Shown here piece after piece: positions 3,387 to 61,931 of a stretch of 64,000 nt of DNA. Under the pieces are notes generated by a model. The model was not told where the DNA came from and made no database searches. It was given only the letters and a program-made list of their open reading frames with translations. The translations under genes and the position numbers were made by a program. Within the stretch, counting starts at the first letter, position 1. Each line of letters opens with the position of its first letter. Origin of the DNA: a virus (lineage: Duplodnaviria; Heunggongvirae; Uroviricota; Caudoviricetes); IMG/VR virus record IMGVR_UViG_3300035210_000190, one strand, 5' to 3'.

Positions 3387-4355
3387 ATGTTTGCAGACTA
3401 TATCGAAAATATTCAATACGCATCTTCTGATTACAGGAAGCGTGATCGATTTCTGGCTAAAAATGTCGTTATCCGACTTCCTTATTTGTCTCCACAGCAT
3501 TTTGTTGACTACTCCAAAAACCCTTCAAAGGTTGTAGAAGAATTAGAAGAATTTATGAAGCCTATTATAGAATCTTCTGGTACGTGTCTATTCTTCTCAG
3601 ATTTTATAAGTAAAGATTCTGTTTACACTATTTATAAGATAAAAAGAGAAAATTCGAGTGCTGCCCTTACAGATTTTCTTGAGGAAAGCTTTCAAACAGC
3701 TAAGCAGGATGATCTGATCATTCGATCACAATTGTCAGATTCTTTCGAAAAGATTTTTGATGGTTTATTTGTTGGAGAAACGTTTAAACAACGATTTCTG
3801 ACTGACTTAAAGACGAAAAGCGTTTCTACTGATTTTTCTATTTCAGGGTCTTTGGCACCTGATCGATTAATCAAAAAATCTGGTCATTATTTTGTTAATA
3901 TAAATATCAGGTTTACCCCAGAACATGAAGCTTTTTTAAGAAAAGTTTTAAATATCACCACCAATGTTGAACTCTTATATAGGGGTTATGTATACTTTAA
4001 ATCTGACTTCACTGTAAAAGAGTTTAAATTTAAATTGTTTTCAGCCACTGATCTTCATCGTGAACATTTTGAGTATTCTCGATCATCACCTACATATGGG
4101 TTTATTACCACTGAAAAAAAAGCAAAACCTTATGCCTACGATCAAAAGCCTAAATTATTTTTCAAGCACTTTACTCCTGATGAGTATAAATCCATCTTAT
4201 ATCAACTTCTAAAATTTCTGAATGATTCAGAAACGCTTGCTAAATATTCAGAATTATTGCCTGAACTGTATAGGCCGTCAGCCTATGACTTTTCCAGTCT
4301 ATCTATGGATGAGTTGGATACTCGTTTGATACTTCAAGACATGATTGACATTTAA
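3387..4355 (+). CDS. Hypothetical protein with C-terminal LPEL..SAYDF...DMIDI motif
   Basis: 322-aa ORF, upstream TATAAT and GAAGG RBS; C-terminus matches 13641..14393 and 20042..20737. Confidence 0.85.
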   Translation: MFADYIENIQYASSDYRKRDRFLAKNVVIRLPYLSPQHFVDYSKNPSKVVEELEEFMKPIIESSGTCLFFSDFISKDSVYTIYKIKRENSSAALTDFLEESFQTAKQDDLIIRSQLSDSFEKIFDGLFVGETFKQRFLTDLKTKSVSTDFSISGSLAPDRLIKKSGHYFVNINIRFTPEHEAFLRKVLNITTNVELLYRGYVYFKSDFTVKEFKFKLFSATDLHREHFEYSRSSPTYGFITTEKKAKPYAYDQKPKLFFKHFTPDEYKSILYQLLKFLNDSETLAKYSELLPELYRPSAYDFSSLSMDELDTRLILQDMIDI

Positions 4356-4408
4356 TAATTATATTTTTATGGTATACTATTATTAATTAATTTATTGTTT
4401 ATATATAT

Positions 4409-6256
4409 ATGGATTTGAAAGAAAGTTTAAAACAGATTACACACTTAGCCACTAGACTTGCACCCGATGGTTGGGAAGCTGTAAATTCTTATAATTTTTT
4501 ACATTATAACGAAATGACATTTATACCAGAGTTGAAAAAAAATAAAGCCAATAGAATATTAACTAATGTTCCAACTATAAAAGATACAATTGCTAAATTG
4601 TCTGGCTATGTTGACACCATCCTATCCACGGATGTATCTTCTCTAACTAGCGAATTTGATGTTGACCTTTATGCTTCAAAGGTTACACCAGATTCTTTTG
4701 AAAAAAACCACATTATGTTAATGACGGCTCTTCAAGATGAGGTAAATTCCGTATGGTCTGATTTTTATTATTCACAAATGGCCGGGTCTTATGAATTTAA
4801 TGAGGATATGTCGGAGACACTTGCTCAGCAAATCCAATCAATAAAAGAAATTTCAAAAAGAATTGAAAAACAATATGTTGAAGTCAATAAATTTTTAATG
4901 TTTAACTACACATTAACTAATCAATTAGGGATTTCCTTGCTTCATAAAGATGACAAATCTTATGTTGTTGACTCTATCGAAAATTATATAAAAAACAATA
5001 CTCCTGACATGAACAACTTAACGAAGTTATATGACGAATATACCGTTGCTAATCAGACATTCTTAGATACTGTTAAAGTTGAACTTACTAAAATCAATCC
5101 TTCAATGTTTATTACGAATGCAGATTTGTTTATAGAGACTTTAAATAAAAATAATGATACATCATCTGTTGAAGGTTTTCTTATTGAAAAAATGTTAACT
5201 GATGATTCTGTTTATACGTCTGTTGATTTCACTGCAGCACAAAAAATTAATAAAGTTGTATTGTTTGACGACGCCAGTATTGCGTACAAAAGGGATGGTC
5301 AATATCACACATTCAAGGATACTACATCATTGAAAGAGTTTATCAGTGACCTTCACAATGATGCTCTCGCTTATTTGTTAAGAAAGAAACCGAAGACAAT
5401 CAGTTTCTTCCAAGATAAGTTAAAAGAAGATGTAAGCTATAACAACTCCATTACTGCAGCTACTTCATTTTTAGATAACCACTCAGTTCTAAAACAATAT
5501 AATGTTGATTTGAATGCTTGGAAGGATAAAACATTTGAATCAATAGATGACGATATTAACCACATAGTCAACAAAAATAAAATAAAACAATTTGCATTTA
5601 GTATTCTTAGTGCTAAATATAAACATTTATTTAATGATATCACAGAGCCTCATTTTAAAGCCTTATATGACAACAATGTAACAACTAGTCAATTACAAAC
5701 ATTTGTGGGCAAAAAACTGGCTGCACTTGATTCTAATGAAGATGTCATTTCTATGTTGAGTGGAATACTTAATCATTTTGATGGATTTACACAAGAAGCC
5801 TTATCTGAAAAATTAGCGGCATTGGGTATAAATAAACTTCATGATGATAATAATGTTGTTACTTTTGCGGTTAAGACTTATGAGCAATGTGAAGCATTAG
5901 GTTCAACGTCTTGGTGTATTGTCAGAGATCAAGATTACTATGATCAGTATGTTACTGACCATCGTAATATTCAGTATATTCTGTATGACTTCAACAAAGC
6001 TTCAACTGATATTAATTCCATGATTGGGTTTACTGTTGATAAATCGGGTTCAATTTATGCTGAACATCTTAAAAATGATGACACTATTAATTCATATGAT
6101 AAATCAGATGAGCTTGAACATATACAAACAAATACTATTTATACGAATAGAAAACAACACAAACTATCAGAAGAGAAACTTTTTGAAATGGAAGAATCTC
6201 TTAATTTTAGAGATGTTAAAAAAGTAACTAAACCTTTAAAAATGAGAAATATATGA
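4409..6256 (+). CDS. Large hypothetical protein with C-terminal GSTSWCI domain (module gene A')
   Basis: 615-aa ORF; last ~135 aa homologous to 1..399. Confidence 0.9.
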   Translation: MDLKESLKQITHLATRLAPDGWEAVNSYNFLHYNEMTFIPELKKNKANRILTNVPTIKDTIAKLSGYVDTILSTDVSSLTSEFDVDLYASKVTPDSFEKNHIMLMTALQDEVNSVWSDFYYSQMAGSYEFNEDMSETLAQQIQSIKEISKRIEKQYVEVNKFLMFNYTLTNQLGISLLHKDDKSYVVDSIENYIKNNTPDMNNLTKLYDEYTVANQTFLDTVKVELTKINPSMFITNADLFIETLNKNNDTSSVEGFLIEKMLTDDSVYTSVDFTAAQKINKVVLFDDASIAYKRDGQYHTFKDTTSLKEFISDLHNDALAYLLRKKPKTISFFQDKLKEDVSYNNSITAATSFLDNHSVLKQYNVDLNAWKDKTFESIDDDINHIVNKNKIKQFAFSILSAKYKHLFNDITEPHFKALYDNNVTTSQLQTFVGKKLAALDSNEDVISMLSGILNHFDGFTQEALSEKLAALGINKLHDDNNVVTFAVKTYEQCEALGSTSWCIVRDQDYYDQYVTDHRNIQYILYDFNKASTDINSMIGFTVDKSGSIYAEHLKNDDTINSYDKSDELEHIQTNTIYTNRKQHKLSEEKLFEMEESLNFRDVKKVTKPLKMRNI

Positions 6257-7680: not shown

Positions 7681-7788
7681 GGTGTTTTTTTATAGATAAC
7701 ATTTTAATTTCAGCTATAAATGTTAACAATAACTTGTATTTTTGACTGTATTTTGGTATAATCCCTTTTCTAACGAAGAGGCTTTTTT

Positions 7789-8233: not shown

Positions 8234-8336
8234 ATTTGTTTTTCAAATAAGATCAACGGTCGTTTTTTCTGCCTTATTTAATTGACCAAATTCCAGAATT
8301 TTGTTATCATCGAGCAAATTATTAGAGGTGTCAATT

Positions 8337-9113
8337 ATGCAAACAAACAAGAGAGCGTCATTTTATACTGATATTTCAAAGCAGCAGGAGTTCATAGCCC
8401 GGTTGAATGCCATTCTAAATGAACCTGACAGCAGTATTTCAAACTGTTACCTCGCACGTTCGACATCTGATCGTTATTGTTTGTTTATTACGCCTTTTAA
8501 TGCTCAGTATGACTTTACGACCATCACGTTTGATTTTTGCAATTTCTTTTCAAATTCTACGGTCAAAGATGACGACTTCTACAGTCGGTATGTGGATCAA
8601 GGTCTTTCAAAAACGGATGTTGATCGCCTCAGTGATTTGCTGGATGAATTCGCCTTTGAAAACTTCTATGAAGGTCTGTTCTTTGCTTCTAAGTTCTTTG
8701 AGCCTGAATTGAACCCTTTAAAGGTTAATAGCCTCTATTTCAAGTTTACTGCCAATGAAGAAGATCGCCTTGAATTGATTGATGGTAAGAAACTTGAAAA
8801 ACATTATTCTGTGACTACCCGTCAAAATCTGGCTTATGAATTGAGCCGAGATAAAAGTATTGATTTGAATGCTAACCTCATCAAGTGTAATACTTACAGT
8901 TTCTCACAATACAAAAAATTGGATTTCTGCCTCCGGGAAATCAAGAAAACTAATGGCAACTATCCAACTGTAGAAAAATTGGTTGTTGTTCAGTATCGTG
9001 ACCTTGAATACTACAACAGCTATATTCAGAGTGTTTTTGCACTTGTTGATGATGAGTTGGATGAAGTTGACATTAAAGATATTGTTAATACGGCAGAAGT
9101 AGAAGAAGACTAA
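8337..9113 (+). CDS. Hypothetical protein
   Basis: TTGACC-17-TATCAT promoter (8282..8310); GAGGTG RBS favours ATG 8337. Confidence 0.8.
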   Translation: MQTNKRASFYTDISKQQEFIARLNAILNEPDSSISNCYLARSTSDRYCLFITPFNAQYDFTTITFDFCNFFSNSTVKDDDFYSRYVDQGLSKTDVDRLSDLLDEFAFENFYEGLFFASKFFEPELNPLKVNSLYFKFTANEEDRLELIDGKKLEKHYSVTTRQNLAYELSRDKSIDLNANLIKCNTYSFSQYKKLDFCLREIKKTNGNYPTVEKLVVVQYRDLEYYNSYIQSVFALVDDELDEVDIKDIVNTAEVEED

Positions 9114-12263: not shown

Positions 12264-13565
12264 ATGAATCAAGAACTTTTTGTTGAAAAAATTATTAAAA
12301 ATCCATTAATTTTATTGAATGACTTTTCTACATTAGGATTTAAACTTTATGATAATCGCTTAGGTCAATCTAATTATGACGAAGGATCTAATCGTGTAAA
12401 TTTTGAAGATCATAGAATTACTTCAGTTTTTGATTATGATAATGATCTGATTATAGCTATTTTTGAAAAAATATTTCCAGAGAAAGGGCTATATACTGTT
12501 AAAAATTTCTTTTCTATTCTTAACTTTTATCAAATAATTTTTTCTAAAAATTGTTATTACAATGAAGAATGTCACATTGTATTTTTAAAGAATTATTTTA
12601 GCTTTAAAAGTCCTTTATTCAGTTTTAGCTTTATTGATGGTGTTTTTGAAGAGATTGAATTAACTAATGAACTTTTTTTTAAATACAGGGATATTGAAAA
12701 AATAACAATAGACGCATTGTATGAATTAATTTTTAAAAACTTTAAATCTGCGTTTTACCAATATTTTAAAGATGACAACATTATTATTGATAATAATATT
12801 GTACATAAAATTATTAATGGAACTACATGGGAATATTATGAAAAAAAATTTTCTAATAAATCTTTTAAAATAATGGATGATTACACATTTAATGAAAGAC
12901 TTCGTAATTACGCTCATCCAATTAAAATAAACCACGCATCTGTAACAGTCGAAAATATCCCATTAAAAACTTTGCTTGTTGGTGCTTTTGATGAAGATTT
13001 TAAAGAAGGTGAATGCATAAATCAATTGGGGTTTTTCAAGGATTTTGATTACTTTATAGAAGAATATTACTTTTCTGATATAAGTTTTAATTCAAATGAT
13101 CATTTTTTTGTTAAATATATTTTAAAAGATGTCTTGGATGAAATAGAACTTTCTTATTTAACTTCTGTATTTTCTTTGCTTCAATTTTATGATGAACTTT
13201 TTATTAATAATTGTGCTACGAGAGATTTCAAAAGAAGATCAAATGCAAAATACTCTGATGATTTACAATACCTTATTGGTAAAAAAATTTCTATGCATAG
13301 GCGTAGTTATTCAGATATTGATCGATCTCCTAGAGAAGATGATCATGCTTACCTGTTTATACTATCTAGTTTTGCTTTGTATCTAGGAGATAAAAATTTA
13401 GAATTAAGTCTTCATGATAATGAAAAAATAATTAAGGATAGTTTCATTGATATTTATAATGAGTTATTAAAAATTGTCAATAAAAAAATAAACGAAGCAC
13501 TCAATGTTGAGTCTGATTTTGTAACCGTTGATGATCTTCGATTATTGGAAATTATGCTATATTGA
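12264..13565 (+). CDS. Hypothetical protein ending ...DDLRLLEIMLY
   Basis: 433-aa AT-rich ORF; bidirectional terminator at 13591..13616. Confidence 0.85.
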   Translation: MNQELFVEKIIKNPLILLNDFSTLGFKLYDNRLGQSNYDEGSNRVNFEDHRITSVFDYDNDLIIAIFEKIFPEKGLYTVKNFFSILNFYQIIFSKNCYYNEECHIVFLKNYFSFKSPLFSFSFIDGVFEEIELTNELFFKYRDIEKITIDALYELIFKNFKSAFYQYFKDDNIIIDNNIVHKIINGTTWEYYEKKFSNKSFKIMDDYTFNERLRNYAHPIKINHASVTVENIPLKTLLVGAFDEDFKEGECINQLGFFKDFDYFIEEYYFSDISFNSNDHFFVKYILKDVLDEIELSYLTSVFSLLQFYDELFINNCATRDFKRRSNAKYSDDLQYLIGKKISMHRRSYSDIDRSPREDDHAYLFILSSFALYLGDKNLELSLHDNEKIIKDSFIDIYNELLKIVNKKINEALNVESDFVTVDDLRLLEIMLY

Positions 13566-13640: not shown

Positions 13641-14393
13641 TTACATCAAGAACATTTTGACTAGACACAAACGATCTTTAAACTCATCAGAATTAAAATC
13701 GTAGGCCGATTCAATATTTATTTCTGGTAAGGTTTCTGTTATCATTTCATTGTTTTTGTTGAAATAAAGTCCCATTAAAAAGAGTTCTTCTTCTTCAGTA
13801 CACACCATATCTTTATTCTTTTTGAGTTTTGTTGATTTAGAATCTTTTACTCTTAATCTAACAACAAAATCTTCTTCCAGATCACGTCCCATGAATTTGA
13901 ATTCTGAATCATATATCAATCTGATGATACCTCTATCAAATTTTGATCCATTTACAAAATACATTAATGAAAAATCAATATGGTCAATATTTTGCTTGCT
14001 ATCAAAATAGATTTCAAACTTACAACCATGAACACTTCTGTTACCACCAAAAACGAAGCTGAATGGGTTTGTCGTTTTTTTGAGCGTCATGACTGATGTT
14101 GGTAAGTCTTTGCCTTTCGGTGATCGTGTAAATTTAAATGTGAACTTATCATCGAATAAGGTATCTCTGCGAACAAGGCAGTCATGTAAATGTTCAATTA
14201 ATTTATAGTTAAGGTCGAAATGTTTAATCACTTTAACGGTTTGTTTAAATACTTTTTCTCGAACTGATTTAAGCTCGTCTTTTTCCTGATTTTCATCTAA
14301 ATCATCTTTACTTTTCTTCATGGTTTTAGACATTAAAAAAATCTCGTTAAATTTGTGAGCTTTAATATTATCATACTTATCCATCATTCGCAA
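13641..14393 (-). CDS. Hypothetical protein, paralog of 20042..20737, with C-terminal SAYDF motif
   Basis: CL...FDD/ERF, FD..QNI.H and LPE...SAYDFNS..F..R blocks shared. Confidence 0.85.
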   Translation of the reverse strand: MRMMDKYDNIKAHKFNEIFLMSKTMKKSKDDLDENQEKDELKSVREKVFKQTVKVIKHFDLNYKLIEHLHDCLVRRDTLFDDKFTFKFTRSPKGKDLPTSVMTLKKTTNPFSFVFGGNRSVHGCKFEIYFDSKQNIDHIDFSLMYFVNGSKFDRGIIRLIYDSEFKFMGRDLEEDFVVRLRVKDSKSTKLKKNKDMVCTEEEELFLMGLYFNKNNEMITETLPEINIESAYDFNSDEFKDRLCLVKMFLM

Positions 14394-18519: not shown

Positions 18520-19920
18520 ATGAGCAAACATAACTATAATTTTTCAGAAGTTTCTGCTGTTAATGAAATTCCAAAGGGCACCGAAGTCGTAGTAAGCACT
18601 TATCAATCCTCAGAAGATGGCCCGATTATCCATGAATCCATTCCTGTTGATATTCATCGTTACCTTGATGAAGAAAATTTTAGCGTTCAACATGGGTCTG
18701 TATTCTATGTCATGCTGCATGTCAAAGCTGATGACAAATCAGTTGCTAAAAAAGTGACCACTGCCATTGCTGCCTTGCCAAAACATCTCACTAAGGTATC
18801 TGTTCTTGCTACTGTCGGTTGTTTGAAACAGTTTACTGCAGCTCTGCTGGTGGCGACTGCTCAACATTGGACAGCGAAATCCGAACAAAAAGCAAAACAA
18901 CCAAAAGACGTGACTATTGTCTATGAAGGTGATGAACCTCTTGGTGAATTGAACGACCAAATTCAGTTAGGTAAAGCACTGGCATTGGCTCAGGCAACCA
19001 AGATTCGTCTTATTGAAATGCCTTCCAATTATCTTACGCCTACTGCTTTGCTTCAAGAAGCCAAGAACGTCATGGAATCGAGCCAAAAGGTCACGCTTTC
19101 TGTTGTCAGTGGTAAAGACTTGGAAGAAGAAGGATACGGCTCGCTTTACGCAGTTTCGAAAGGTTCTGTTGAAGAAGGGCATTTGATCACTCTTGAGTAT
19201 AATGGCGGTGTCAAAGGTGAGGCTCCTATTGTTCTGGTGGGTAAAGGTCTGACGTTTGACTCAGGTGGTATTTCTATTAAGCCATCCCGTGGCATGGGCC
19301 GCATGAAAGGTGATATGGGTGGTGCAGCTACCGTTCTCGCTTCCTTGATTTATGCGATTGAAGCCAATGTGAAGAAAAACATTGTGGCGATCATTGCAAC
19401 GTGTGAAAACATGCCAGATGCTGCTGCTCTAAAACCGGGTGATGTGATTACTGCCAAAAACGGTAAGACGATTGAAGTGGAAGATACAGACGCCGAAGGC
19501 CGTTTGGTGTTGGCTGACGCCTTGTGCCATGCACAAACCTTTAATGGTGCTGTAACCATCGACTTTGCGACACTAACAGGTGCTGTGATTGCGGCTATCG
19601 GCCATGTTCACACTGGCTTGTTCACTGAAAGTGATGAGTGGGCTGAAACCCTTCTGGCTGCTGGTAAAGCTTCTGGTGATACAGCGTGGCGTTTGCCGAT
19701 GGGTGATGAGTATAATCATTTCCTTGAAAGCTCTGTTGCCGATCTGAACAACCTTTGCTTGGGTCAGGGTGCAGGAGCCACCAACGGTGCTATCTTCTTG
19801 CGTGAGTTCGCTCCAAAAGAAAACTGGATTCACCTTGATATTGCAGGCACTAGCGATCACAACGGCGGTACCGGACGACCTGTTGGGTTGATGTCTCATT
19901 TCTTGGACAGCTTCCGTTAA
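18520..19920 (+). CDS. pepA: Leucyl aminopeptidase, peptidase family M17 (PepA/PepB-like)
   Basis: VGKGLTFDSGG, MKGDMGGAA, TDAEGRLVLADAL and WIHLDIAG; metal-ligand and catalytic residues present. Confidence 0.95.
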   Translation: MSKHNYNFSEVSAVNEIPKGTEVVVSTYQSSEDGPIIHESIPVDIHRYLDEENFSVQHGSVFYVMLHVKADDKSVAKKVTTAIAALPKHLTKVSVLATVGCLKQFTAALLVATAQHWTAKSEQKAKQPKDVTIVYEGDEPLGELNDQIQLGKALALAQATKIRLIEMPSNYLTPTALLQEAKNVMESSQKVTLSVVSGKDLEEEGYGSLYAVSKGSVEEGHLITLEYNGGVKGEAPIVLVGKGLTFDSGGISIKPSRGMGRMKGDMGGAATVLASLIYAIEANVKKNIVAIIATCENMPDAAALKPGDVITAKNGKTIEVEDTDAEGRLVLADALCHAQTFNGAVTIDFATLTGAVIAAIGHVHTGLFTESDEWAETLLAAGKASGDTAWRLPMGDEYNHFLESSVADLNNLCLGQGAGATNGAIFLREFAPKENWIHLDIAGTSDHNGGTGRPVGLMSHFLDSFR

Positions 19921-20041: not shown

Positions 20042-20737
20042 ATGTTAAATTCCTGTATTCAAGAACTTGCAATAGAACCAAAAGATAGTGTTGGGCCTGC
20101 ACAGCTACAAATTCAGAAATTAAAAATTGTTGAAAATGCTATTAAAGTCATTGAAACCTTTAAAGTTTCATCAACGCTTTCGGAACATCTTTCTTTTTGT
20201 CTTATTGATAACAATTCTTATTTTGATGAAAGATTTGCATTGCTTGTTGATTACTCAAAAGATGAAGGGATAAAAGGGGAGTCTGCATTGATTTTGAAAA
20301 ATGTTGGCAATGTTTTTAACTTAAAATTAGGTTATATTCAAGAAGCTAAAAAAGGATCTAGCATTAAAATTGAATTCGACAACAATCAGAATATTAAACA
20401 TGTTATTTTCTTCACTCATTTAAATGTCAGAAACAATAGATTTGATGCCACAGAAATTCAATTAACTTGTGATGGCTCATTGAAGTTGTTTGATTATCAA
20501 TACACATCGATCCTTGTTGACCCGACAACAAAATCATTGGTTAGACATCAGATTGTTAAAGACGACAAAACTTTACTTGACCTATCGGATGAAGTTTTCT
20601 TTATTAACATGAAGATCAATAATAAAAATGAGGTGCTTGCTGATTTGTTGCCAGAACTTTTCATATCGTCTGCGTATGATTTCAATAGTTTTGATTTTCA
20701 ATCTCGTTTTGAAATGATTGATATGGTTCTTTATTGA
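20042..20737 (+). CDS. Hypothetical protein, paralog of 13641..14393, ending LPELFISSAYDF..DMVLY
   Basis: AAGGTG RBS; shared blocks. Confidence 0.85.
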   Translation: MLNSCIQELAIEPKDSVGPAQLQIQKLKIVENAIKVIETFKVSSTLSEHLSFCLIDNNSYFDERFALLVDYSKDEGIKGESALILKNVGNVFNLKLGYIQEAKKGSSIKIEFDNNQNIKHVIFFTHLNVRNNRFDATEIQLTCDGSLKLFDYQYTSILVDPTTKSLVRHQIVKDDKTLLDLSDEVFFINMKINNKNEVLADLLPELFISSAYDFNSFDFQSRFEMIDMVLY

Positions 20738-20764
20738 TTGAACTTTTGATGACCAAAAGAGCCT

Positions 20765-21178
20765 TTATAGGCTCTTTTTGTTTCTAGGTTGAAATATTTG
20801 TGTGTCATTTGATGTGTTTGTTATTCGCGTTAAAATAAGTTCTTCTGGATTGCTGTCATCAGTAATAACCCAATCAAAAAATAACAGTATTGCTAAACGC
20901 TCTCTATCTTCTGGCTCATAGTTTAAATTAGGATGGTTGGTGTTCAGATAGTCATAGACGGCTTGATAATCTTTATATTTCCAACTCGCTTTTATTTGTG
21001 CAGGTGTTTTGTCTCGAGTCGGTTTGATTAAGAATAAAAAAATTATTGTGAAGAATATACAGGCACCTAATAATTTAAAATTAATTTGATGATTATTTAT
21101 AGCGTCAAACATCATTGTACAAAATGTAATTATTGCAAATATGAAAGTGTAAACTATCATTAAAAATTCGAACATCAT
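20765..21178 (-). CDS. Two-TM membrane protein
   Basis: Two N-terminal hydrophobic segments; shares bidirectional terminator 20755..20780. Confidence 0.7.
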   Translation of the reverse strand: MMFEFLMIVYTFIFAIITFCTMMFDAINNHQINFKLLGACIFFTIIFLFLIKPTRDKTPAQIKASWKYKDYQAVYDYLNTNHPNLNYEPEDRERLAILLFFDWVITDDSNPEELILTRITNTSNDTQIFQPRNKKSL

Positions 21179-21310
21179 GCTTCTTATCTCTTATTTATAT
21201 TAATAAAATACATTAAATTAAAAAATAAAACAACAATTTCTTTTGACTTTTATTTGCATTTAAATTATAATCGGGTCGCCTTGATAAGTATTTATTATTT
21301 GGAGATTGTT

Positions 21311-22087
21311 ATGGATGTCAAACTTTTAACACGTAAAACAATTACCTTTGCTCATAATGTTTTTTTTAATTATATTGGGTTGCTGAGCTTTGTATTTTTT
21401 GCGATCAGCTATTTTTCTTTCACTTATTTCCAAAATGAAAAAGTTGGCTTTATTTATTATGCTTTATTACTAGTTCCCTTATTTCATGGTTTTGCTTTTA
21501 TTTATCAATTAACACGATTTGTAAAAAATAAAATAACGCTTGAAGGTCATGTCTTTAATAATCTATTGAAGAATCTGCATACGACAAGAGATAAAGCTTT
21601 TTATGATAATTTTTTTCCACTTTTTAGCATTGTATTTATAGCATCTTTTTATAGTATGGGTTTAATTTATGTTCCAAAATTTGTTGACACTATTTATCTT
21701 TTTTATAATGATCCTTCATATTTTCCTGCAACAATTATTTTTCTTTTTTTATCTGGGTTTTATGTCTTTGCTTCTTTTCTTTCTTTATATATCTTTCAGC
21801 AAGGTAATGAGTTGTTGAACAATTCGATTGCTATTAAAAATGAATACTGTTTAAAGAATGATATTTCTGTCAAAGATACTTCCAGTATGATGTTCACTCT
21901 TTACGATGGTCATGTTATTAATCTGTTGTTTGATGATTTGATTGTGAATGTTAAAAAGAATGAGGCCATCTACAAAAATAAAAAATATAACTACACTGCT
22001 TTAAATAATTACCTTAACGAAACAGGATTATCCATTAAAGAATTATCAACACCAGACTGGTCAGTTGTGGCTTTTATGTCAATTTGA
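21311..22087 (+). CDS. Multi-pass membrane protein ending ...DWSVVAFMSI
   Basis: GGAG RBS before ATG 21311; about four hydrophobic segments. Confidence 0.8.
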   Translation: MDVKLLTRKTITFAHNVFFNYIGLLSFVFFAISYFSFTYFQNEKVGFIYYALLLVPLFHGFAFIYQLTRFVKNKITLEGHVFNNLLKNLHTTRDKAFYDNFFPLFSIVFIASFYSMGLIYVPKFVDTIYLFYNDPSYFPATIIFLFLSGFYVFASFLSLYIFQQGNELLNNSIAIKNEYCLKNDISVKDTSSMMFTLYDGHVINLLFDDLIVNVKKNEAIYKNKKYNYTALNNYLNETGLSIKELSTPDWSVVAFMSI

Positions 22088-22119
22088 TGGTATAATCCAT
22101 TCACACATTTGAGGTGACT

Positions 22120-22818
22120 ATGTTTAGACTACCCAACTTGATGAAGGAAAAAGAACGAGAAATCGACTATCTCAGTCGGCTGTCCGTTCATCCACGTTGC
22201 ACGCTGAAAACCACGACCGAAGTCCAGCGTATTCTGGTCGATTTTATCATGCGGAATCAACTTGACCTCAATGGTCAAACAGGACGGCGTTATGTGACGT
22301 TCAGGGAACATGGTTTTGAGGAATCGTTCATTGGTGGTTTTGGTTCTCGCCATCAAATTGCCCACATTATTATTGATAAAGACTTCAATATCAAAGAACA
22401 CACCGAGACAAATTTTGTAAACATCATCAAGCTTTATGAGAAGATTGATTTTGATGTTCAATTAACACAAGAATGTGTCACCTTTTCTTTGAAAGAAGGT
22501 TATACAAAACTTGAAGATATTGAATACGTTGAGTTTGTCTATAATGCTTGTATTGCTACCGATAAAGGCTTTTATCCAGAATCAAAGATCCTTGTTCGCC
22601 ATTACCTTGATGGAGCCGAACCTTCCTTCTCAATGGTAGACCGTGAAGACATTGATATGGACCTGCTTATTACCTTAACAACTTCTCTCACCAGATTTAA
22701 TGACATCCTCCCGCCATTCATTGAAAATCATAAAGAAGCTTTTTGTGCCAAATTCGGGATTGATAGCACTGATTTTAGTGATGACACGAATATGCTTATT
22801 CAGATGATGGATGTTTGA
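22120..22818 (+). CDS. Hypothetical protein ending ...MLIQMMDV
   Basis: GGTATAAT promoter, GAGGTG RBS. Confidence 0.85.
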   Translation: MFRLPNLMKEKEREIDYLSRLSVHPRCTLKTTTEVQRILVDFIMRNQLDLNGQTGRRYVTFREHGFEESFIGGFGSRHQIAHIIIDKDFNIKEHTETNFVNIIKLYEKIDFDVQLTQECVTFSLKEGYTKLEDIEYVEFVYNACIATDKGFYPESKILVRHYLDGAEPSFSMVDREDIDMDLLITLTTSLTRFNDILPPFIENHKEAFCAKFGIDSTDFSDDTNMLIQMMDV

Positions 22819-23688: not shown

Positions 23689-24264
23689 ATGTTCAAAAAT
23701 ATCATTGCTATTGCCTTGTTGACCATTACGGCTACGTTGGTTGGTTGTTCGGGTAATCCACAATATGGCCCACTTACTTCCATCAATGCTGATAAATCAG
23801 TAGATATTGGCTCCTATGTCCAGTGGAATGATGAGTATGCTGTTACAGCTAAGCATGTTAAAAATGTAAAGAACGTGGCATATGTCTCGAAAAATTATGA
23901 CTTGGTATTCTTCAAGCATAAATCGACAGCACCTTTGAAATGGGCTGATACGAAAGTCAATGAACCACTGGTTTCAAAGGGCTTTCCTTTCTTTCCACAA
24001 CGATTGAAAGAAAATGTTGTTTCTGCTAACAATGTCAATGTCAATCTCACTTTGGATAACATGCCACATTATTTTTTGATGGACGCTCAACTCATTGGTG
24101 GTATGTCGGGTGGCCCAGTCTTTAACCAGTATAACGAAGTTGTTGGTATTAATATTGGTTACACAAACAAACGCTATAATATCGACCATAAAGAACAAGT
24201 TTACTCGATTTACCTCTCTCACCAAGGCATTCAGCAAGAATGGAATAAATTTGTTTCACAATAA
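23689..24264 (+). CDS. Trypsin-like serine protease (S1) lipoprotein
   Basis: Lipobox LVGC; triad motifs VTAKHV, YDLVF and GGMSGGPV. Confidence 0.85.
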   Translation: MFKNIIAIALLTITATLVGCSGNPQYGPLTSINADKSVDIGSYVQWNDEYAVTAKHVKNVKNVAYVSKNYDLVFFKHKSTAPLKWADTKVNEPLVSKGFPFFPQRLKENVVSANNVNVNLTLDNMPHYFLMDAQLIGGMSGGPVFNQYNEVVGINIGYTNKRYNIDHKEQVYSIYLSHQGIQQEWNKFVSQ

Positions 24265-31439: not shown

Positions 31440-31500
31440 AGGTTGTTTTTTTATGGTTTTAATGTTAATATAACACATCAATTTCTAGGAGTAATCTATT

Positions 31501-31764
31501 ATGCGTCCAGTCACTAAGTTTTGGGTTAACGATAAAACTCGTATGTGCTCCATGACTATGGGTGCAAAAGAAGACGCTGATAATGTCAAGGCTGGCTTCC
31601 GCGAAGTCACTGCAGAAGAACAAGATGCTTTCCGTGCTGAAACCAAAGTATTGAAAGAAGCTAAGAAAACACCAAAAGGGAAAGGTAAAAAAGCTGATTC
31701 TGGTTTGGTGATCAATGCGACAGCAGCAGAACTTGCAAAATTGGTTGAAGACTTTAATAAATAA
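31501..31764 (+). CDS. Hypothetical protein
   Basis: AGGAG RBS, host-like codon usage. Confidence 0.8.
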   Translation: MRPVTKFWVNDKTRMCSMTMGAKEDADNVKAGFREVTAEEQDAFRAETKVLKEAKKTPKGKGKKADSGLVINATAAELAKLVEDFNK

Positions 31765-31794
31765 TTGAAACTTTGATAGACGGAGTATAAACAA

Positions 31795-34299: not shown

Positions 34300-34418
34300 A
34301 ATCGTCATCAAGAAGGGAAATACATTCTTGATTTTCGTTAAAAAGATGTGGATTATTTTAAGTTTCTCATAATCTGTATCGAGGGCGTGAAAGCAATTTT
34401 AGGCTTCGTCTGTTCCAC

Positions 34419-34491
34419 AGAGGTGTATATCAGTTGGTAGATAGTCTCCCTCGCAGGGAGAAGGTCGCGGGTTCAAGTCCCGTCACTGATG
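34419..34491 (+). tRNA. Degenerate tRNA-like element, nominal anticodon CGC (Ala)
   Basis: D arm TATC-AGTTGGTA-GATA, anticodon arm TCTCC-CTCGCAG-GGAGA, T arm GCGGG-TTCAAGT-CCCGT; two acceptor mismatches, no CCA. Confidence 0.6.
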
Positions 34492-34519
34492 TGGATTTAG
34501 GCCGAGAGGTCAGGACAAA

Positions 34520-34593
34520 TACGGTGTATATCAGCGGCCTAGATAATCTCTCTAACCGAGAGAAGGACGTAGGTTCAAATCCTACCACTGTAT
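34520..34593 (+). tRNA. tRNA-like element, nominal anticodon AAC (Val), atypical loop
   Basis: Full acceptor TACGGTG/CACTGTA, D arm TATC/GATA, anticodon arm TCTCT-CTAACCG-AGAGA, T arm GTAGG-TTCAAAT-CCTAC; no encoded CCA. Confidence 0.7.
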
Positions 34594-34603
34594 TGCAAGA
34601 ACC

Positions 34604-37118: not shown

Positions 37119-37185
37119 GTTAGCTAAACACTAGACAAAAAAAGACCACCTTCGGGTGGTTTTTTTTATCTTTAATAGTCGATTA

Positions 37186-38013
37186 TTAAATTTCAATCAT
37201 GTCATGAATTAAAACAATATCTCTTGCAGTTGTATAATCAGTGTCATGTTCTTTGTTATACCATTCTACAAAACTGGCTTCTAATTCTTTTGTATTCATT
37301 TTCTTTGTACTATGCACACTGACTATGCCATATTTCTTTTCTGATATTTTTCGTTTTATTTTAATATCACTTTTGGAAATTGAGAAGAATAGTTTACCAA
37401 AGTTGAAAAATATGTAATAGCCTGCATCACTGGTATAGATGTTTGCTTCGACATGACCTAATTTCTGGGTTTCATATTGATCTTTTTCATAAATAGAATC
37501 CAAATACGAAAATGTTTTTACCAATCTATTATTTTCAAATAACAAGTTGTCCATTATTTTTAAATTGGCATACAGACTTTGTTTTTCTTTAACATCCGAA
37601 TACCTTTCCAAAAAATATTGATTGTTTTGGAATTTCTCATTAATTAGTTTATTGATTATATTATGAACAGTGTTGTCATCAATACATTCACTGATAATAA
37701 ATTCGTGATCTAAATTTTTAACAAGTCCCTCAAACGCAGATGTTTGATAATAGAATGGATATCCTTGATTAAAACTAATCGTCAAGGTTTCTCTGGACAT
37801 GCTTAAATGAAACTCAGTGGTATAATCGCCTTCATAAATGTTGATAAGGTCATCAGCAAGTATAGATAAAATCCTTTTTACCTTTTCGGGCCTATCTGGT
37901 AGGTAGATAATGCCTTCTATCTGCGATGTGTCTACATTCTTTAATTGGCTTACTTGAATTTCTTGATCCATCCATGCATTCAGCACTAATGGTGTATTCT
38001 TGATTGTTTCCAT
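37186..38013 (-). CDS. Hypothetical protein, paralog of 38015..38833, ending HDMIEI
   Basis: LADDLINI..GDY.T, F..YPF, FSYL..IYE blocks shared. Confidence 0.9.
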   Translation of the reverse strand: METIKNTPLVLNAWMDQEIQVSQLKNVDTSQIEGIIYLPDRPEKVKRILSILADDLINIYEGDYTTEFHLSMSRETLTISFNQGYPFYYQTSAFEGLVKNLDHEFIISECIDDNTVHNIINKLINEKFQNNQYFLERYSDVKEKQSLYANLKIMDNLLFENNRLVKTFSYLDSIYEKDQYETQKLGHVEANIYTSDAGYYIFFNFGKLFFSISKSDIKIKRKISEKKYGIVSVHSTKKMNTKELEASFVEWYNKEHDTDYTTARDIVLIHDMIEI

Positions 38014-38014: not shown

Positions 38015-38833
38015 TTAAATCTCCATCATGTCATGAACGATTCGAAGATCTTTAACATCAGTGTATTCAGTCTCATAAATCTGATTATAGCTTCTTAAAA
38101 AGCTTTGCTCTACTGCATCAAATTTAAGATTATCTTTGACAAAAAAGACTGCTCGACACGTACTTTCTTCTTCTTTTGTTTTAGATGAGCGAATTAATAT
38201 CCCCATGTCTGTGACAGCCATATAAATCCAGCCAAACGAAATTTTTATCATTGGGCCATCAGAACTTGTAATCAGATTAGCTGTTATATTCCCAATTGTG
38301 TGTGTTTTAATGGGATCTTCGTATATTGTTCTTAGATAAGAAAACTTTTTAACCAGTGTAGGTTCATCAAACAATAGTTTGTCTGCATACCCTAAATATT
38401 TATAAAAATTTTGCTTTCTGGGCAGAGCTGAGAAGTTCTTTTCGTATAACCAACTTTGGGAAGTTTCTTCAAGTGTATACCTGATTTTAGCATCAATAGA
38501 TTGATGAATGTCTTTATCATCTGTGTATTCATACAGCGAAAAATTATAAGTGATATTCTTAACAGGACCACTACCTTGTTCAAAGATAAATGGATAACTT
38601 TTTTCAAAACCAATGTCGAGACTGCGATCATCCAAGGCAAAATAAATACCTGTTTCATAATCACCGCCATTGATGTTGATCAAGTCATCTGCTAATAAAT
38701 CAAGTAAACGAACCAAATAGGTTTTATAGGCTTCGCTTAAAAATCGACCAACAAATTCCACATCAACATTTTTTAGTCGGCTGATGGCGTAAGTTTCGTT
38801 CAATCTTGTTTGCAGAACCAATGGCTCATTCAT
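38015..38833 (-). CDS. Hypothetical protein, paralog of 37186..38013, ending HDMMEI
   Basis: Tandem paralog, 1-nt gap. Confidence 0.9.
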   Translation of the reverse strand: MNEPLVLQTRLNETYAISRLKNVDVEFVGRFLSEAYKTYLVRLLDLLADDLININGGDYETGIYFALDDRSLDIGFEKSYPFIFEQGSGPVKNITYNFSLYEYTDDKDIHQSIDAKIRYTLEETSQSWLYEKNFSALPRKQNFYKYLGYADKLLFDEPTLVKKFSYLRTIYEDPIKTHTIGNITANLITSSDGPMIKISFGWIYMAVTDMGILIRSSKTKEEESTCRAVFFVKDNLKFDAVEQSFLRSYNQIYETEYTDVKDLRIVHDMMEI

Positions 38834-57322: not shown

Positions 57323-57438
57323 AATCCGATAAAAGGAAATTTTTATAGCCTAATTCCGTATTGGTTTTGGGCTTTTTTCTTTACAATTTTTGCATTCTTT
57401 GGTATAATAGACCTCACAAACCAACGATGAGGTGCAAC

Positions 57439-57555: not shown

Positions 57556-57561
57556 TCATTG

Positions 57562-57720
57562 ATGACTATTTCTACACATGCAGAAGCCGTGACCTTATTG
57601 AAATCGTTGCAAGAACAACTCAATGATCCTGTCAATTTTGTTTATCTGTCAGAAAATCCTGAGTATTTGGCTCGCATTAATTCAATGGTCAGTGAACTCC
57701 GTTCCAAACTTAAAAAATAG
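57562..57720 (+). CDS. 52-aa small protein MTISTHAEAVTLL...RSKLKK
   Basis: Read manually; fills the operon gap. Confidence 0.55.
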   Translation: MTISTHAEAVTLLKSLQEQLNDPVNFVYLSENPEYLARINSMVSELRSKLKK

Positions 57721-57733
57721 GATTATTTTTTCA

Positions 57734-57934
57734 ATGAAAACAAAACCATTATTTATCCGTACAATTGATCCAGAACACCTCAATGACCTTGATTTTGATG
57801 TGAGTGTTATCCATATTTCTAGTCGTCAAAAATACAGCAGTGACATCTCAATGATTACTGTTGATGGCCGTCAGCATTATGTGTTCACTGCAGAACTTAA
57901 AGAGGTTGTATCTCTTCCCGGTTCTCGTATCTGA
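57734..57934 (+). CDS. Hypothetical protein
   Basis: AGGA RBS before ATG 57734. Confidence 0.65.
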   Translation: MKTKPLFIRTIDPEHLNDLDFDVSVIHISSRQKYSSDISMITVDGRQHYVFTAELKEVVSLPGSRI

Positions 57935-57935
57935 C

Positions 57936-58751
57936 ATGACTGAAAATCAGAAATCCCTCACAGACGCCTATCGTGAGTTTGGTGAAGAATTGAATAGCTC
58001 TGCCGCTGTGGTAGAGCTTCGTCGTATGCGTAATATTAATGCTGACACTATGTTCTACAACTCAACTCGCGTTAGTCACCCTTGTCTTGAAAATGAATTC
58101 ACTGCCATCACCCCTGTTGCTTATCTGAATCGTACTGAGCTTTATTTGCCTGCCATTCAGCTTTTCAACGACATTCAAAAAACAGATTTTTCAAACATTC
58201 ACAATGTTCTGGATGTGGTGCTTACCTCGGGTATTGAATGCTGCATTTTTTCGGAAGGTGATCATCAGTTCAAAAGCTATTTGACGATGAAGGATTCATT
58301 TTTTTCAGGTATTAAATCTTGCTATGACTTTTCGATAAAGCATTATGGCCTTCTTCGCATTCAAGAGCATGAGAAACGTAAACGAATGCTGAGTATGCAT
58401 TTGAATTTTGAATTGGGTGTGTGTCGTGAAGGGGCTTTTGTGCAAGCAAAATTTACAGTGCCTACTCGTTACAAGCCTTTTGACATTATGCTTTATGAGC
58501 TGAACCAAAGGTTCTACCTTTCGGTACCGAAAGAATCAAAAGAAGTTCAACACCCAGAGAATGAAACGTTTATTTTTGAAGGTGAACAGGCACAAGCTGA
58601 TATCTATAAACTCATTCATGAACGGTATAGACATCGGGTCTTTTATTCCAATTTCAAAAAGCAATTTGACCGATATTATGATGATGATATTCAACTGGAT
58701 GGTCTTGATTTGTGGTCAACTGTTCAGCTTATGGACGCAATTAAAATGTAG
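57936..58751 (+). CDS. Hypothetical protein ending ...VQLMDAIKM
   Basis: ATG 1 nt after previous stop. Confidence 0.8.
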   Translation: MTENQKSLTDAYREFGEELNSSAAVVELRRMRNINADTMFYNSTRVSHPCLENEFTAITPVAYLNRTELYLPAIQLFNDIQKTDFSNIHNVLDVVLTSGIECCIFSEGDHQFKSYLTMKDSFFSGIKSCYDFSIKHYGLLRIQEHEKRKRMLSMHLNFELGVCREGAFVQAKFTVPTRYKPFDIMLYELNQRFYLSVPKESKEVQHPENETFIFEGEQAQADIYKLIHERYRHRVFYSNFKKQFDRYYDDDIQLDGLDLWSTVQLMDAIKM

Positions 58752-58810
58752 TCACCATTGACGAAAACAACATTTTGATCTATAATTGTCGGACACATTA
58801 GGAGTATAGA

Positions 58811-59293
58811 ATGCAAGAATTGGCCTCAGTCATTAAAGAATTCATGTTGAAACGAGGTGAAACCATCTCGGTTGCTGAAAGCCTCACCAGTGGCTATCTG
58901 CAGGCCCACATGTCCGCAGTTGCAGGATCTTCTAAGTATTTTGCGGGTGGTATTACCGCCTACAACATCGACATGAAAGTTAAGTTTTTGAATGTTGATC
59001 GAGCGAATGCTGAAACATGTGATTGCGTCAGTGAACAAACCGCCATCGAAATGGCAAAAGGCGTTGTTGAGCTTTTTGATACTGATTATGGTGTTGCTAC
59101 CACGGGTTATGTGGATAAAGAGAACTCGAAAGGAATGGCCCATGCTTATTTTGCCATCTACTCACGCAGAGATCGCAAATTGCATAGTTTCTTTATGTCT
59201 TGCACCCATTTGGAAGAAAGAACTGCAATTCAGGCATATTTTGCTAGACTTGCGACCGAAAAGTTGGTAAAATTCTTAACAGTTGACCTCTAA
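58811..59293 (+). CDS. pncC: CinA C-terminal domain protein / NMN deamidase (PncC-like)
   Basis: ISVAESLTSG, GSSKYFAGGITAY...K, VSEQTAIEMAKG and VATTG signatures; catalytic Ser and Lys positions present. Confidence 0.88.
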   Translation: MQELASVIKEFMLKRGETISVAESLTSGYLQAHMSAVAGSSKYFAGGITAYNIDMKVKFLNVDRANAETCDCVSEQTAIEMAKGVVELFDTDYGVATTGYVDKENSKGMAHAYFAIYSRRDRKLHSFFMSCTHLEERTAIQAYFARLATEKLVKFLTVDL

Positions 59294-59319
59294 ACACTTT
59301 TAAAAAGGCTCTCTTAATC

Positions 59320-59766
59320 ATGCAAACTATCAAAGCAGCAACCAATCAAGAACTTGTTTTGGTACGTGGTCACTCGGGCAGTGGTAAATCCACTTTCGCG
59401 GGTTCTTTTGTTCCTTTCGGCTACAAGCATTTTGAAAACGACAGTTTCTTTGTCGGTGAAGATGGCGTTTACAAATTCGACTTTGCTTTCCATCAGGTTG
59501 CCAAAGACGAGTGTGTCAAAAAAGCGGTTCAAGCTTTGCTGGATGGGGAATCGGTCGTGGTGAGTAACACCTTCACCAAAGTGGTTGAAATGGACTCGCT
59601 GGTTTCTTTCGCTAAAGAGTTGGGCATTGATATTCGAATTTTTGAGATGGAAAACGATTACGCCAATACCCACAACGTGCCAGAAGCTGTGATTATCGAA
59701 AAGAAGGCTGCTTTTGAGCCGATTGAGACGGCTTTGAAGGTTAAAGGTGATTATGTAGTCGTTTGA
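59320..59766 (+). CDS. P-loop kinase (AAA_33 / polynucleotide-kinase-like)
   Basis: LVRGHSGSGKSTFA, VVVSNTF, HNVPE. Confidence 0.85.
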   Translation: MQTIKAATNQELVLVRGHSGSGKSTFAGSFVPFGYKHFENDSFFVGEDGVYKFDFAFHQVAKDECVKKAVQALLDGESVVVSNTFTKVVEMDSLVSFAKELGIDIRIFEMENDYANTHNVPEAVIIEKKAAFEPIETALKVKGDYVVV

Positions 59767-59826
59767 AAAGATACGCCTTAAAAAGCCTCACAGATGTGGG
59801 GCTTTTTTATTTCTTAATTAAAACAA

Positions 59827-60510
59827 TTATTGAGCGATAGCTTTTCTACATATTTTAGAATAATCATACAAATCGATCCAAGTGTAGGAATGCGAAGTTT
59901 GGTAATCACCGGAACGATATTCATAGCCGTTAACTACAAATGAAGCGGCTGGGGAACCTGTAAATACTAAATCACCCGCCCAGTAAATTTTTACCACTGT
60001 AGGTGCATCATTTGGACCAAAGTAGGCAACATACGCACTGTCTACAGTGGTTGTACTTTCACTACTGGTTAAGTTAACTACATATTCACATTCAAGAGCG
60101 GCGGCTGTTCCAATGGCTGTTCTTTGTTGCATACCGAGTGGGGTACTTCTTTCTTCAACCGTTGGACTTCCTACATTTCTTATGGCATTACTACCTTGTT
60201 CAATCTCTCGTTCTTGTTTGTTCCGAGATTCATCTTGAACACAACCAATTCCTGATTGTGTAAAGCTGACACCCGCATCATAGTTATCTGTTGATGGCAA
60301 CCATGTACAGTTTCTTAAACTTCCAGATGGTATCCAGCTAGTATATTCTGGGGTATAGCTTACCCATGAATTGCTTTGACCGCCTAAGTTAATTGAACCG
60401 TTTGGTAAACTTCCACCTTGAGCAATCTCAAGTGGCACATAAACGTTGTACTCAGCATATGTGATTTGTAATGTAAAAGCGAGAAATGAGCCTATAATTA
60501 TCTTTTTCAT
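59827..60510 (-). CDS. Secreted protein with one 90-aa-type repeat plus the C-terminal domain of 43858..44991
   Basis: Signal peptide ending TYA|EYNVYVPL; W..W...C.W.P......FTQ....C.Q...R..QERE; C...NGY.Y...ICR tail. Confidence 0.88.
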   Translation of the reverse strand: MKKIIIGSFLAFTLQITYAEYNVYVPLEIAQGGSLPNGSINLGGQSNSWVSYTPEYTSWIPSGSLRNCTWLPSTDNYDAGVSFTQSGIGCVQDESRNKQEREIEQGSNAIRNVGSPTVEERSTPLGMQQRTAIGTAAALECEYVVNLTSSESTTTVDSAYVAYFGPNDAPTVVKIYWAGDLVFTGSPAASFVVNGYEYRSGDYQTSHSYTWIDLYDYSKICRKAIAQ

Positions 60511-60713
60511 AATAAAATTATTGTTATTATATCTATTTTAATATTTTTATATATTTAGTCAATATATCACAACATATATCTGACATGCGACATTAGTGCA
60601 TTTTTAATGCCGAAAAAATAACCTTAAAAAATAAAAAATCTTGTCAAAAACCTTATTTTTGTGTATAATTAATCCATACCTAAATCGTCTGCTCACCTCA
60701 GTGATTATAAAAC

Positions 60714-61163
60714 ATGGCTAAGAAGACAAAACCTAAGTTCATATTACCAGAACCTCCAAGCGTTGAAGTTCTTCGATTGGAAACGGTTGATGGTTGTGGC
60801 ATTTATAAGAGTAATTCCAAAAATTCATCGGCTTTTTGTGTAAACATGACCACCAGTGAAGAATCTCTTTGGTGCCAAGTCACGAATAATTTTCAGGATT
60901 CATCCGTGCATCCGAATCCCTGTCAAGAATTCGGAATTGAACTTGACTACTGGCAGGAACTTTTTTGTGGGTTTGCCAATTTGGAACAATATCGTAACTG
61001 GCTGTTCAATCCTTACTGGCGTCGGTCCTTTGCAGAACGTGGCGTAAAAATGGTTACTTACAAAGTTCCTCGGGATGAAGTTCGGTTTGGTCGTAAACAA
61101 ATACTATTTAATAAAAGTATGGCGACGAAAATCAAAGAAGAATCTTTATCTAATTATTTTTAA
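60714..61163 (+). CDS. Hypothetical phage-type protein (possible ADP-ribosyltransferase-like fold)
   Basis: VLRLE, HPNP, FCGF..LEQY..W, GRKQILF; fold assignment tentative. Confidence 0.6.
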   Translation: MAKKTKPKFILPEPPSVEVLRLETVDGCGIYKSNSKNSSAFCVNMTTSEESLWCQVTNNFQDSSVHPNPCQEFGIELDYWQELFCGFANLEQYRNWLFNPYWRRSFAERGVKMVTYKVPRDEVRFGRKQILFNKSMATKIKEESLSNYF

Positions 61164-61181
61164 AATTAAGGATTGAAAAAA

Positions 61182-61931
61182 ATGTCAACAATTCATGAGT
61201 ATTTATCATATGCATTCAAATCAACATTAGTTCACGACTACGAACAAGATATCAAATTAAAACTGACAACTCTTTTTACTCAATTGGGTTTAGAATTTTC
61301 TATCAATCCATCTAGTTTTATCAAACAAGATGTTGATTTTTCTAATGATCAATTAGAAGCCTATCACAAATATCATTTTAACTATGGCACTGTTATCATT
61401 CATCCTAATGAGAGTGGATTTTTTATTGAGTGCATATTCAATGATGAAATTAAACCAAACATACCGTTCAAATGTGATAATTGTTTTGTTGATTTAGATA
61501 AAAATATGACCTTAAATCAGGCTTCTTTTGAATGGTTTATTGATTTTTGCGACCCTACTAAAAAAGATTCTTTTTATCCATTCAATGGATTAAAGTTTTC
61601 TTATGTTATTAATGGTAATCTTGATGTTACAAGAGAAATATTTTATAAAATTATTTCAGCCTCATTCACTTCAATGACTGATGTAAATTTAAAAAAAGAA
61701 CTATTTAATTACGAGCAATCATTTAATTTGGTCTTAGTTCCATTTTTGAAAAATTTAACCAAGTCGCCAGAGTTATTCTATTCTATTTTTAGTGAATATC
61801 CAAATTATAATGCTATGATGAGTGATGTTAATGAGGCTAAATATTTTCTTGAACTGTTGTGGTCACAATATAATGAAAATGTAGAATTGTTAAAATCAAA
61901 ACTTTTGTTGCTTGATATGGGACACATTTAA
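61182..61931 (+). CDS. Hypothetical protein ending ...LLLLDMGHI; distantly like the 13641/20042 family
   Basis: AAGGA RBS; SPELF and terminal DMxxI. Confidence 0.8.
   Translation: MSTIHEYLSYAFKSTLVHDYEQDIKLKLTTLFTQLGLEFSINPSSFIKQDVDFSNDQLEAYHKYHFNYGTVIIHPNESGFFIECIFNDEIKPNIPFKCDNCFVDLDKNMTLNQASFEWFIDFCDPTKKDSFYPFNGLKFSYVINGNLDVTREIFYKIISASFTSMTDVNLKKELFNYEQSFNLVLVPFLKNLTKSPELFYSIFSEYPNYNAMMSDVNEAKYFLELLWSQYNENVELLKSKLLLLDMGHI

Follow-up and report, generated by a model that had tools for sequence, protein, structure and literature searches.

A strictly C-terminal peptide on dissimilar accessory proteins of a Caudoviricetes element: a possible docking tag

Introduction

Why do proteins whose bodies have nothing detectable in common end in the same short peptide? 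This question is raised by a stretch of 64,000 nucleotides from the IMG/VR virus record IMGVR_UViG_3300035210_000190 (Caudoviricetes), hereafter called the window, in which a sequence-only reading had listed ten proteins with a common C-terminal ending and had interpreted this ending as a terminal address tag or a shared oligomerization helix on modular proteins. Our analysis demonstrates that such a tag, here called the M-tag, exists, is enriched, is under purifying selection and is strictly terminal, while the protein bodies that carry it lack detectable similarity to each other. What the tag does is weighed in the Discussion.

The window is AT-rich (30–41% G+C) and, judging from its two tRNA genes and a strong Shine-Dalgarno signal (35% of starts versus 4% background), belongs to a prokaryotic element. 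Its 111 open reading frames (ORFs) match about 20 Pfam or PHROG families, and no replication or head-assembly hallmark was found among these matches. For comparison, related loci were employed: L001, L006, and L007 belong to contig Ga0308158_10000001, with L007 representing the far end of this 1.86-Mb contig, while L008 belongs to the 1.54-Mb contig Ga0247725_1000001 of a distant relative. Residues are counted backwards from the chain end, the last residue being −1, and genes are named by their low end or likely start.

Enrichment and anatomy of the tag

All ten peptides quoted in the sequence-only reading are true ORF ends, i.e., the last residues before a stop codon, whereas the coordinates given with them are low ends or likely starts of the respective genes and not tail positions (Table 1). 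The likely starts 21311, 22120, 57936, and 61182 match gene calls on related contigs and were preferred over the longest-ORF starts; 22114 and 61173 are the longest-ORF low ends of the genes with the likely starts 22120 and 61182.

Met occupies position −4 in 11 of the 111 ORF ends of the window, compared to 2.7% Met overall. Together with a hydrophobic last residue it was observed nine times, whereas 0.8 cases would be predicted by internal positions of these proteins. Since this pattern had been defined after seeing the data, we built an independent profile test. The profile covers the last ten residues and was trained only on database proteins that carry the SAYDF module described below (146 non-redundant tails). 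It was then applied to 154 ORF ends without this module from the window, L007, and L008, with a threshold of 4 bits. Ten of these 154 ends reached the threshold, whereas the expectation is 0.17 based on internal positions, or about one if the rate of out-of-frame window ORFs (3 of 447) is taken; the pass rate of such ORFs, 0.7%, is roughly six times the 0.1% of internal protein positions. The enrichment of the tail lies far above chance expectation. Tagged ORFs are also frequent in the related loci, with 6 of 32 in L008 (five by profile and one with the SAYDF module) and 4 of 18 in L007 (two by profile and two with SAYDF), the latter rising to 6 of 18 if two weaker tails seen by eye are included.

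The proposal that all ten listed proteins share one tail class held for eight of them (3387, 13641, 20042, 12264, 61173, 37186, 38015, and 22114), while the membrane protein 21311 and protein 57936 failed the objective tail profile. The profile scores of 37186 and 38015 are weakly positive, and both were counted as members because the H-D-M-x-E-I of their tail is invariant in eight homologues at 34–95% identity.

Table 1. The ten proteins listed in the sequence-only reading, with window coordinates, chain ends and scores in the independent tail profile.
Gene	Strand	Product	C-terminal end	Tail or module	Profile score (bits)	Remarks
3387..4355	+	322 aa (amino acids)	..RLILQDMIDI	module ~4254-4352		full LPE..SAYDF module and M-tag
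12264..13565	+	433 aa, acidic	..DDLRLLEIMLY	tail 13521-13562	6.7	Met at −3
13641..14333	−	~230 aa	..DRLCLVKMFLM	module ~13644-13730		SAYDF module and M-tag; full-length paralogue of 20042
20042..20737	+	231 aa	..SRFEMIDMVLY	module ~20645-20734		SAYDF module and M-tag
21311..22087	+	258 aa, four hydrophobic (membrane-type) segments	..DWSVVAFMSI		−7.5	doubtful member
22120..22818	+	~232 aa, acidic	..DDTNMLIQMMDV		0.2 to 0.3 (22114/22120)	weak member
37186..38013	−	275 aa	..DIVLIHDMIEI	tail 37189-37230	2.3	second gene of a two-gene unit
38015..38833	−	272 aa	..DLRIVHDMMEI	tail 38018-38059	1.2	paralogue of 37186 (34% identity)
57936..58751	+	~271 aa	..STVQLMDAIKM		−4.7	Met at −6 and −1; not supported as member
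61182..61931	+	~249 aa, acidic	..KSKLLLLDMGHI	tail 61887-61928	4.6 to 4.7 (61173/61182)

The core of the M-tag comprises about 14 residues: an aromatic residue at −13, Arg or Lys at −10, Leu at −9 and −7, a hydrophobic residue at −6, often Asp or Glu at −5, Met at −4, and hydrophobic residues at −3 and −1, directly followed by the stop codon. Position counts were taken over 154 module-bearing database proteins. Among these, −13 is Phe, Leu, Trp, or Tyr in 149, −10 is Arg in 148 (96%), −9 is Leu, Phe, or Ile in 139, and −7 is Leu, Ile, Val, or Met in 149. Met at −4 is found in 136 (88%), 17 of the remaining 18 proteins have Ile or Leu there, and the last residue is hydrophobic or Cys in at least 133. 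Most tags read M-h-L-h (h, hydrophobic), without an acid at −2. The acidic patch followed by a helix, which the sequence-only reading had described, was recovered as well, as Asp and Glu dominate at −15/−14 and at −5 and the AlphaFold2 models end in helices.

One large family has a conserved 20-residue LPE..PSAYDFNS stretch ahead of the helix, and the three window proteins that had been reported to share LPE..SAYDF (3387, 13641, and 20042) indeed do so. The spacing from ..AY to the chain end is 19 residues in 133 of the 154 proteins and 22 in 15 proteins of the 3387 type, which carry a three-residue insert. Members without SAYDF retain the last 10–14 residues only, e.g., ..YKRKLDLYSMIVI and ..KSSLLLVEMMSI in relatives. 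The AlphaFold2 model of the 20042 family (predicted local distance difference test, pLDDT, of 80.8) consists of two helices, a seven-strand sheet, further helices, a loop (residues 203–216), and the terminal helix (217–230), while that of the 37186 family (pLDDT 68.5) ends in a helix at residues 263–272. A homodimer prediction for the 20042 family gave a score of 0.00, which says nothing either way.

The strictly terminal position of the module is not a peculiarity of the window. A search with the module profile against 1.84 billion representative proteins delivered 119 clusters at E ≤ 0.001, two of which were spurious, and in all of the remaining 117 clusters every true match ends at the last residue of the protein or at most three residues from it. 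The module proteins are 52–384 residues long, the shortest probably being fragments, and come only from metagenomes. The ten window proteins have no Pfam or PHROG match, and among 148 module proteins we found neither a credible Pfam domain nor any family above chance-level matches. Likewise, no relative of 20042 turned up among GenBank phages, IMG/VR contained no match to 37186 or to the module, and a feature search of the ESM Atlas gave nothing for 12264 and 37186. Five fold searches with the body of 20042 (covering the PDB, AlphaFold DB clusters, BFVD, and the ESM Atlas) returned generic curved beta-sheets only (best Z 6.1, template modeling score, TM, below 0.4). The earlier statement that no described family matches was borne out for the tail, which has no Pfam, PHROG, or PDB family.

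Several database candidates were rejected. The single match in GTDB genomes lies inside a 584-aa enzyme and is a false positive, while a likeness of the 20042 model to actin-capping protein was low-ranking with a TM of about 0.2. Among PDB sequences, the profile matched an archaeal PolD subunit (E 0.49) and, over 14 residues of PE..SAYDF, the APE/alpha-F segment of the kinase STK25 (E 0.12), and both matches were treated as chance. Concerning the latter, PE-x5-SAYDF-x2-D does resemble the APE to alpha-F segment of STE20-type kinases (STK25: PEVIKQSAYDFKAD), yet this likeness is probably due to chance because the bodies lack kinase features.

Portability and selection

Full-length similarity between the listed proteins was detected by BLAST only within the pair 13641/20042 and within the pair 37186/38015. 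Both are full-length paralogue pairs, and the ten proteins consequently represent about eight families. To 3387, the pair 13641/20042 is similar only over the last ~50 residues. Profile-profile comparison by hhalign of 18 tagged families from the window and its relatives gave a matching picture. Only the SAYDF-bearing families are related to one another, whereas the 14 of the 18 families without SAYDF could be linked neither among themselves nor with the SAYDF families. What 3387 has in common with the 20042 family is limited to the last 32–46 alignment columns, with at least ten sequences in both alignments. Among the non-SAYDF families several best, albeit non-significant, alignments run tail to tail, which also holds for the best matches of 61182 to other tagged families. 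Furthermore, the predicted orders of secondary structure elements differ between the 20042 and the 37186 families. The isoelectric point does not differ between tagged and untagged proteins.

The tails are better conserved than the bodies. In three families the terminal 14-residue window ranks 20th of 218, 22nd of 262, and 13th of 309 by conservation (top 4–9%), the last being that of 3387 with 13 homologues. Between the window and its relative, at 50–65% protein identity, the tails have acquired synonymous and non-synonymous changes while the pattern was kept. For example, the L001 orthologue of 13641 retains Met at −4 though 20 of the 42 tail nucleotides differ (six synonymous and six non-synonymous codon changes). 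The L001 orthologue of 22120 (65% identity) ends in ..NLLIQMMLVT, one residue longer, with five synonymous tail changes, and that of 12264 (L001 3502-4803; 90.5% identity) has the same tail with two synonymous changes in the last 14 codons. The 21311 gene is missing from the syntenic place in L001, and its tail is identical in a related contig.

Neither of the two outcomes that the sequence-only reading had named as speaking against itself, namely no enrichment or full-length paralogy of all members within one family, was observed. As for its central proposal, a terminal address tag or shared helix on modular proteins, the part that stands comprises the enrichment, the strictly terminal position, the better conservation compared to the bodies and the absence of detectable similarity between these bodies.

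Genomic context

Contigs that bear tagged families reach 834,842, 1,071,457, 1,539,155, 1,843,594, 1,859,102, and 1,917,244 bases. The window's own proteins are found on the contig of 834,842 bases. The published size record of huge phages is quoted as 841 kb (bioRxiv 10.1101/2025.02.27.640493). In the 1.86-Mb contig the module pattern occurs at only two distinct places, and no copy was found at half-length offset, which argues against a simple concatemer of two units.

Within one slot between conserved neighbors, the window (8301-9113) and L001 (2076-2891) harbor unrelated genes of almost equal length, with products of 270 and 271 aa. Only the L001 gene is M-tagged (..NLLLLDMLKI), while the window gene is untagged. 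From the sequences, this looks like a cassette-like replacement of accessory genes.

The constraint on gene 12264 is unusual, with 90.5% identity between two genomes compared to 50–65% for its neighbors. It lies between a sigma-70-like promoter and a terminator, and a bidirectional terminator (37138-37167) closes the 37186/38015 pair. The tagged cluster 20042-22818 is flanked by genes for an M17 aminopeptidase (18520-19920) and a trypsin-like protease (191 aa, 23689-24264), an arrangement that is kept in a relative at 60% identity. Besides the M-tag, a second common ending (..KPLQMRFS, ..KPLKNKPTF, and ..KPLKMRNI) occurs at 1-399, 396-1781, and 4409-6256. These KPL-type endings belong to products of a duplicated 615-aa/470-aa gene module flanking the tagged gene 3387. 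An antisense ORF at 31465-31794 scored 6.2 bits in the tail profile and was nevertheless rejected, as it overlaps an ORF on the plus strand (31501-31764) whose L001 counterpart is called on the plus strand, and as its own tail is not kept in L001. The two tRNA genes of the window, tRNA-Ala(CGC) and tRNA-Val(AAC), adjoin each other at 34418-34594. Among bacteria, it is unusual for tRNA-Val to have A as its wobble base.

Discussion

The strict terminal position, the hydrophobic face, the unrelated bodies and the many fast-evolving accessory genes involved point to a docking or address peptide. We therefore favor, with moderate confidence, the reading that the M-tag is a docking or address tag of some kind, built as a portable C-terminal helix. 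The hydrophobic face, formed by Leu −9, Leu −7, residue −6, Met −4, and residues −3 and −1, would sit together with the free chain end in a groove of a common partner, which may be encoded by the element or by its host. The LPE..PSAYDFNS stretch would act as an adaptor loop ahead of the helix in the one large family that has it. In this way many fast-evolving accessory proteins with different bodies could be brought to the same place. We infer that a single reader would bind the M-tag, and the candidates for its identity are ranked on the same footing.

As first candidate, we tentatively put a loading site in the virion, the procapsid or another compartment built by the phage. The nearest parallel is the capsid targeting sequence (CTS) of phage T4, which like the M-tag is one conserved short peptide on fast-evolving, unrelated bodies encoded in variable genome regions. 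Moreover, genes with the M-tag are swapped between relatives as are those of the T4 internal proteins, the slot at 8301-9113 being the case in point. However, the T4 CTS is an N-terminal leader that the prohead protease cuts off at an L/I-x-E site, whereas the M-tag is located at the C-terminus in every case, where its free end is fixed and a cleavage motif is not visible. Cargo-loading peptides of encapsulins and encapsulation peptides of bacterial microcompartments are short and terminal as well and dock varied cargo inside a protein shell, those of microcompartments being amphipathic helices. In contrast to the M-tag, these peptides follow flexible linkers, either terminus is tolerated in microcompartments and shell genes are located nearby, while no shell gene turned up here, where no search aimed at shell genes was made. 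In its most explicit form, which we consider doubtful, the proposal would have the M-tag serve as cargo signal in a C-terminal loading system that has not been described before. A single receptor, located in the procapsid or in some other compartment built by the phage, would then collect roughly a hundred different fast-evolving accessory proteins across a clade of phage-like genomes with contigs of up to 0.83–1.9 Mb.

The second candidate, less likely again, is a sliding clamp of the T4/RB69 type or another hub of replication or transcription. The T4 proteins gp43, gp55, and gp33 possess hydrophobic, acidic C-termini that bind the gp45 clamp and are interchangeable (PMC2988020). Read from the genomes, T4 tails are ..SLDFLFG and ..SLDFLYEAND, and gp43 of RB69 (NC_004928) ends in ..SLFDMFDF. 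Like the M-tag, such clamp tails are short, hydrophobic and acidic peptides at the extreme C-terminus of unrelated proteins. The RB69 tail shares L(−7) D(−5) M(−4) h(−3) D/E(−2) h(−1) with the end of 3387 (..LQDMIDI) and, from −5 onward, D(−5) M(−4) h(−3) D/E(−2) h(−1) with 37186 (..IHDMIEI) and 38015 (..VHDMMEI), yet the S-L start of the clamp tails is missing in all three. In addition, T4 clamp tails sit on replication and transcription proteins, whereas the M-tag is found on about a tenth of the accessory ORFs. This resemblance is the most specific lead at hand, but it is a lead and not a result. The M-tag also contains [RK]-L-x-L-hydrophobic at −10 to −6, which is similar to the binding motif of the bacterial beta-clamp, Q-L-[SD]-L-F. 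However, the first position is not the defining Gln, which is replaced by Arg in 148 of the 154 module proteins (96%), and five more conserved residues follow. As third candidate, an adaptor or chaperone of another kind is possible.

Several observations weigh against a docking tag or against its leading candidates. The definition of the tag was partly post hoc, two of the ten listed proteins do not pass the objective profile, and no reader protein was identified for the tag. Most family alignments are shallow, so that a very old common ancestry of some bodies is possible. For a clamp, it is unfavorable that not a single Pfam domain, whether related to nucleic acids or not, occurs in 148 module proteins, that about 5–20% of the ORFs in accessory regions are tagged, which is far above the expected frequency of clamp clients, and that T4 tails have no counterpart of the conserved Met, of the Arg at −10 or of the long helix. 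For virion loading, it is unfavorable that tagged genes are organized in units of one or two genes that have sigma-70-like promoters and terminators, an arrangement resembling early expression, and that no protease-site motif was seen near the tag.

Among the rival explanations, common descent alone survives best, though we regard it as unlikely. Here the tagged proteins would go back to one or a few old families within which they have diverged very far, and the terminal helix would simply be their best-conserved structural element, packing on the body or pairing subunits without any address function. Many members are indeed similar in size (200–280 aa), tandem or nearby paralogues are common and low alignment depth restricts hhalign. 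In addition, the last 70 residues are the best-predicted part of the 37186 model, so that the helix may pack on the body. However, 3387 and the 20042 family match over their terminal columns only despite ten or more sequences in both alignments, and tagged proteins range from 160 to 433 aa in length. In the better model, that of 20042, the terminal helix has the lowest confidence of the folded part (pLDDT only ~60–70). A buried helix would furthermore leave unexplained why the chain ends exactly three residues past the Met in about 96% of the 154 module proteins.

Improbable, in our view, is a degron, i.e., a non-polar ending that marks accessory proteins for timed destruction by a host or phage protease reading C-termini (of the ClpXP, FtsH, Tsp, or PDZ-protease type). 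Non-polar C-terminal residues destabilize proteins in E. coli, and the endings of tagged proteins are mostly non-polar (..MVLY, ..MFLM, and ..MILV). The fixed register of the end would suit chain-end recognition, and the trypsin-like protease gene lies just downstream of three tagged genes both in the window and in the relative. However, known C-terminal degrons need 3–5 residues while 14 are conserved here, including Arg at −10 and the aromatic residue at −13. Many tails carry Asp or Glu at −2 (..MIDI, ..MIEI, and ..MMDV), and the neighboring protease consists of the protease domain only, with no recognizable peptide-binding domain.

That AT-rich coding merely yields many ends rich in Ile, Leu, Met, and Phe, from which look-alikes were picked, would account for two of the ten listed tails and fits the higher pass rate of out-of-frame ORFs, but this reading is already largely refuted and hardly credible, as ten ends were observed versus about one expected even at that higher null rate, tails are conserved in orthologues with synonymous changes and the module is strictly terminal in 117 database clusters.

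Taken together, the M-tag is an undescribed motif, while targeting by terminal peptides as such is already known from T4 clamp tails, the T4 CTS and the cargo peptides of protein shells. If it is a docking tag, it would be a further case of phages sending unrelated proteins to one site by means of common terminal peptides. Defined by a fixed chain end together with Met at −4 and Arg at −10, plus the optional SAYDF adaptor, the motif is sharp enough for searching. It is carried by a considerable fraction of the dark-matter genes in genomes that may be the largest of phage-like type yet assembled. Finding the reader would place dozens of protein families in a functional context together and would provide a compact tag with which proteins could be directed in systems of this kind.

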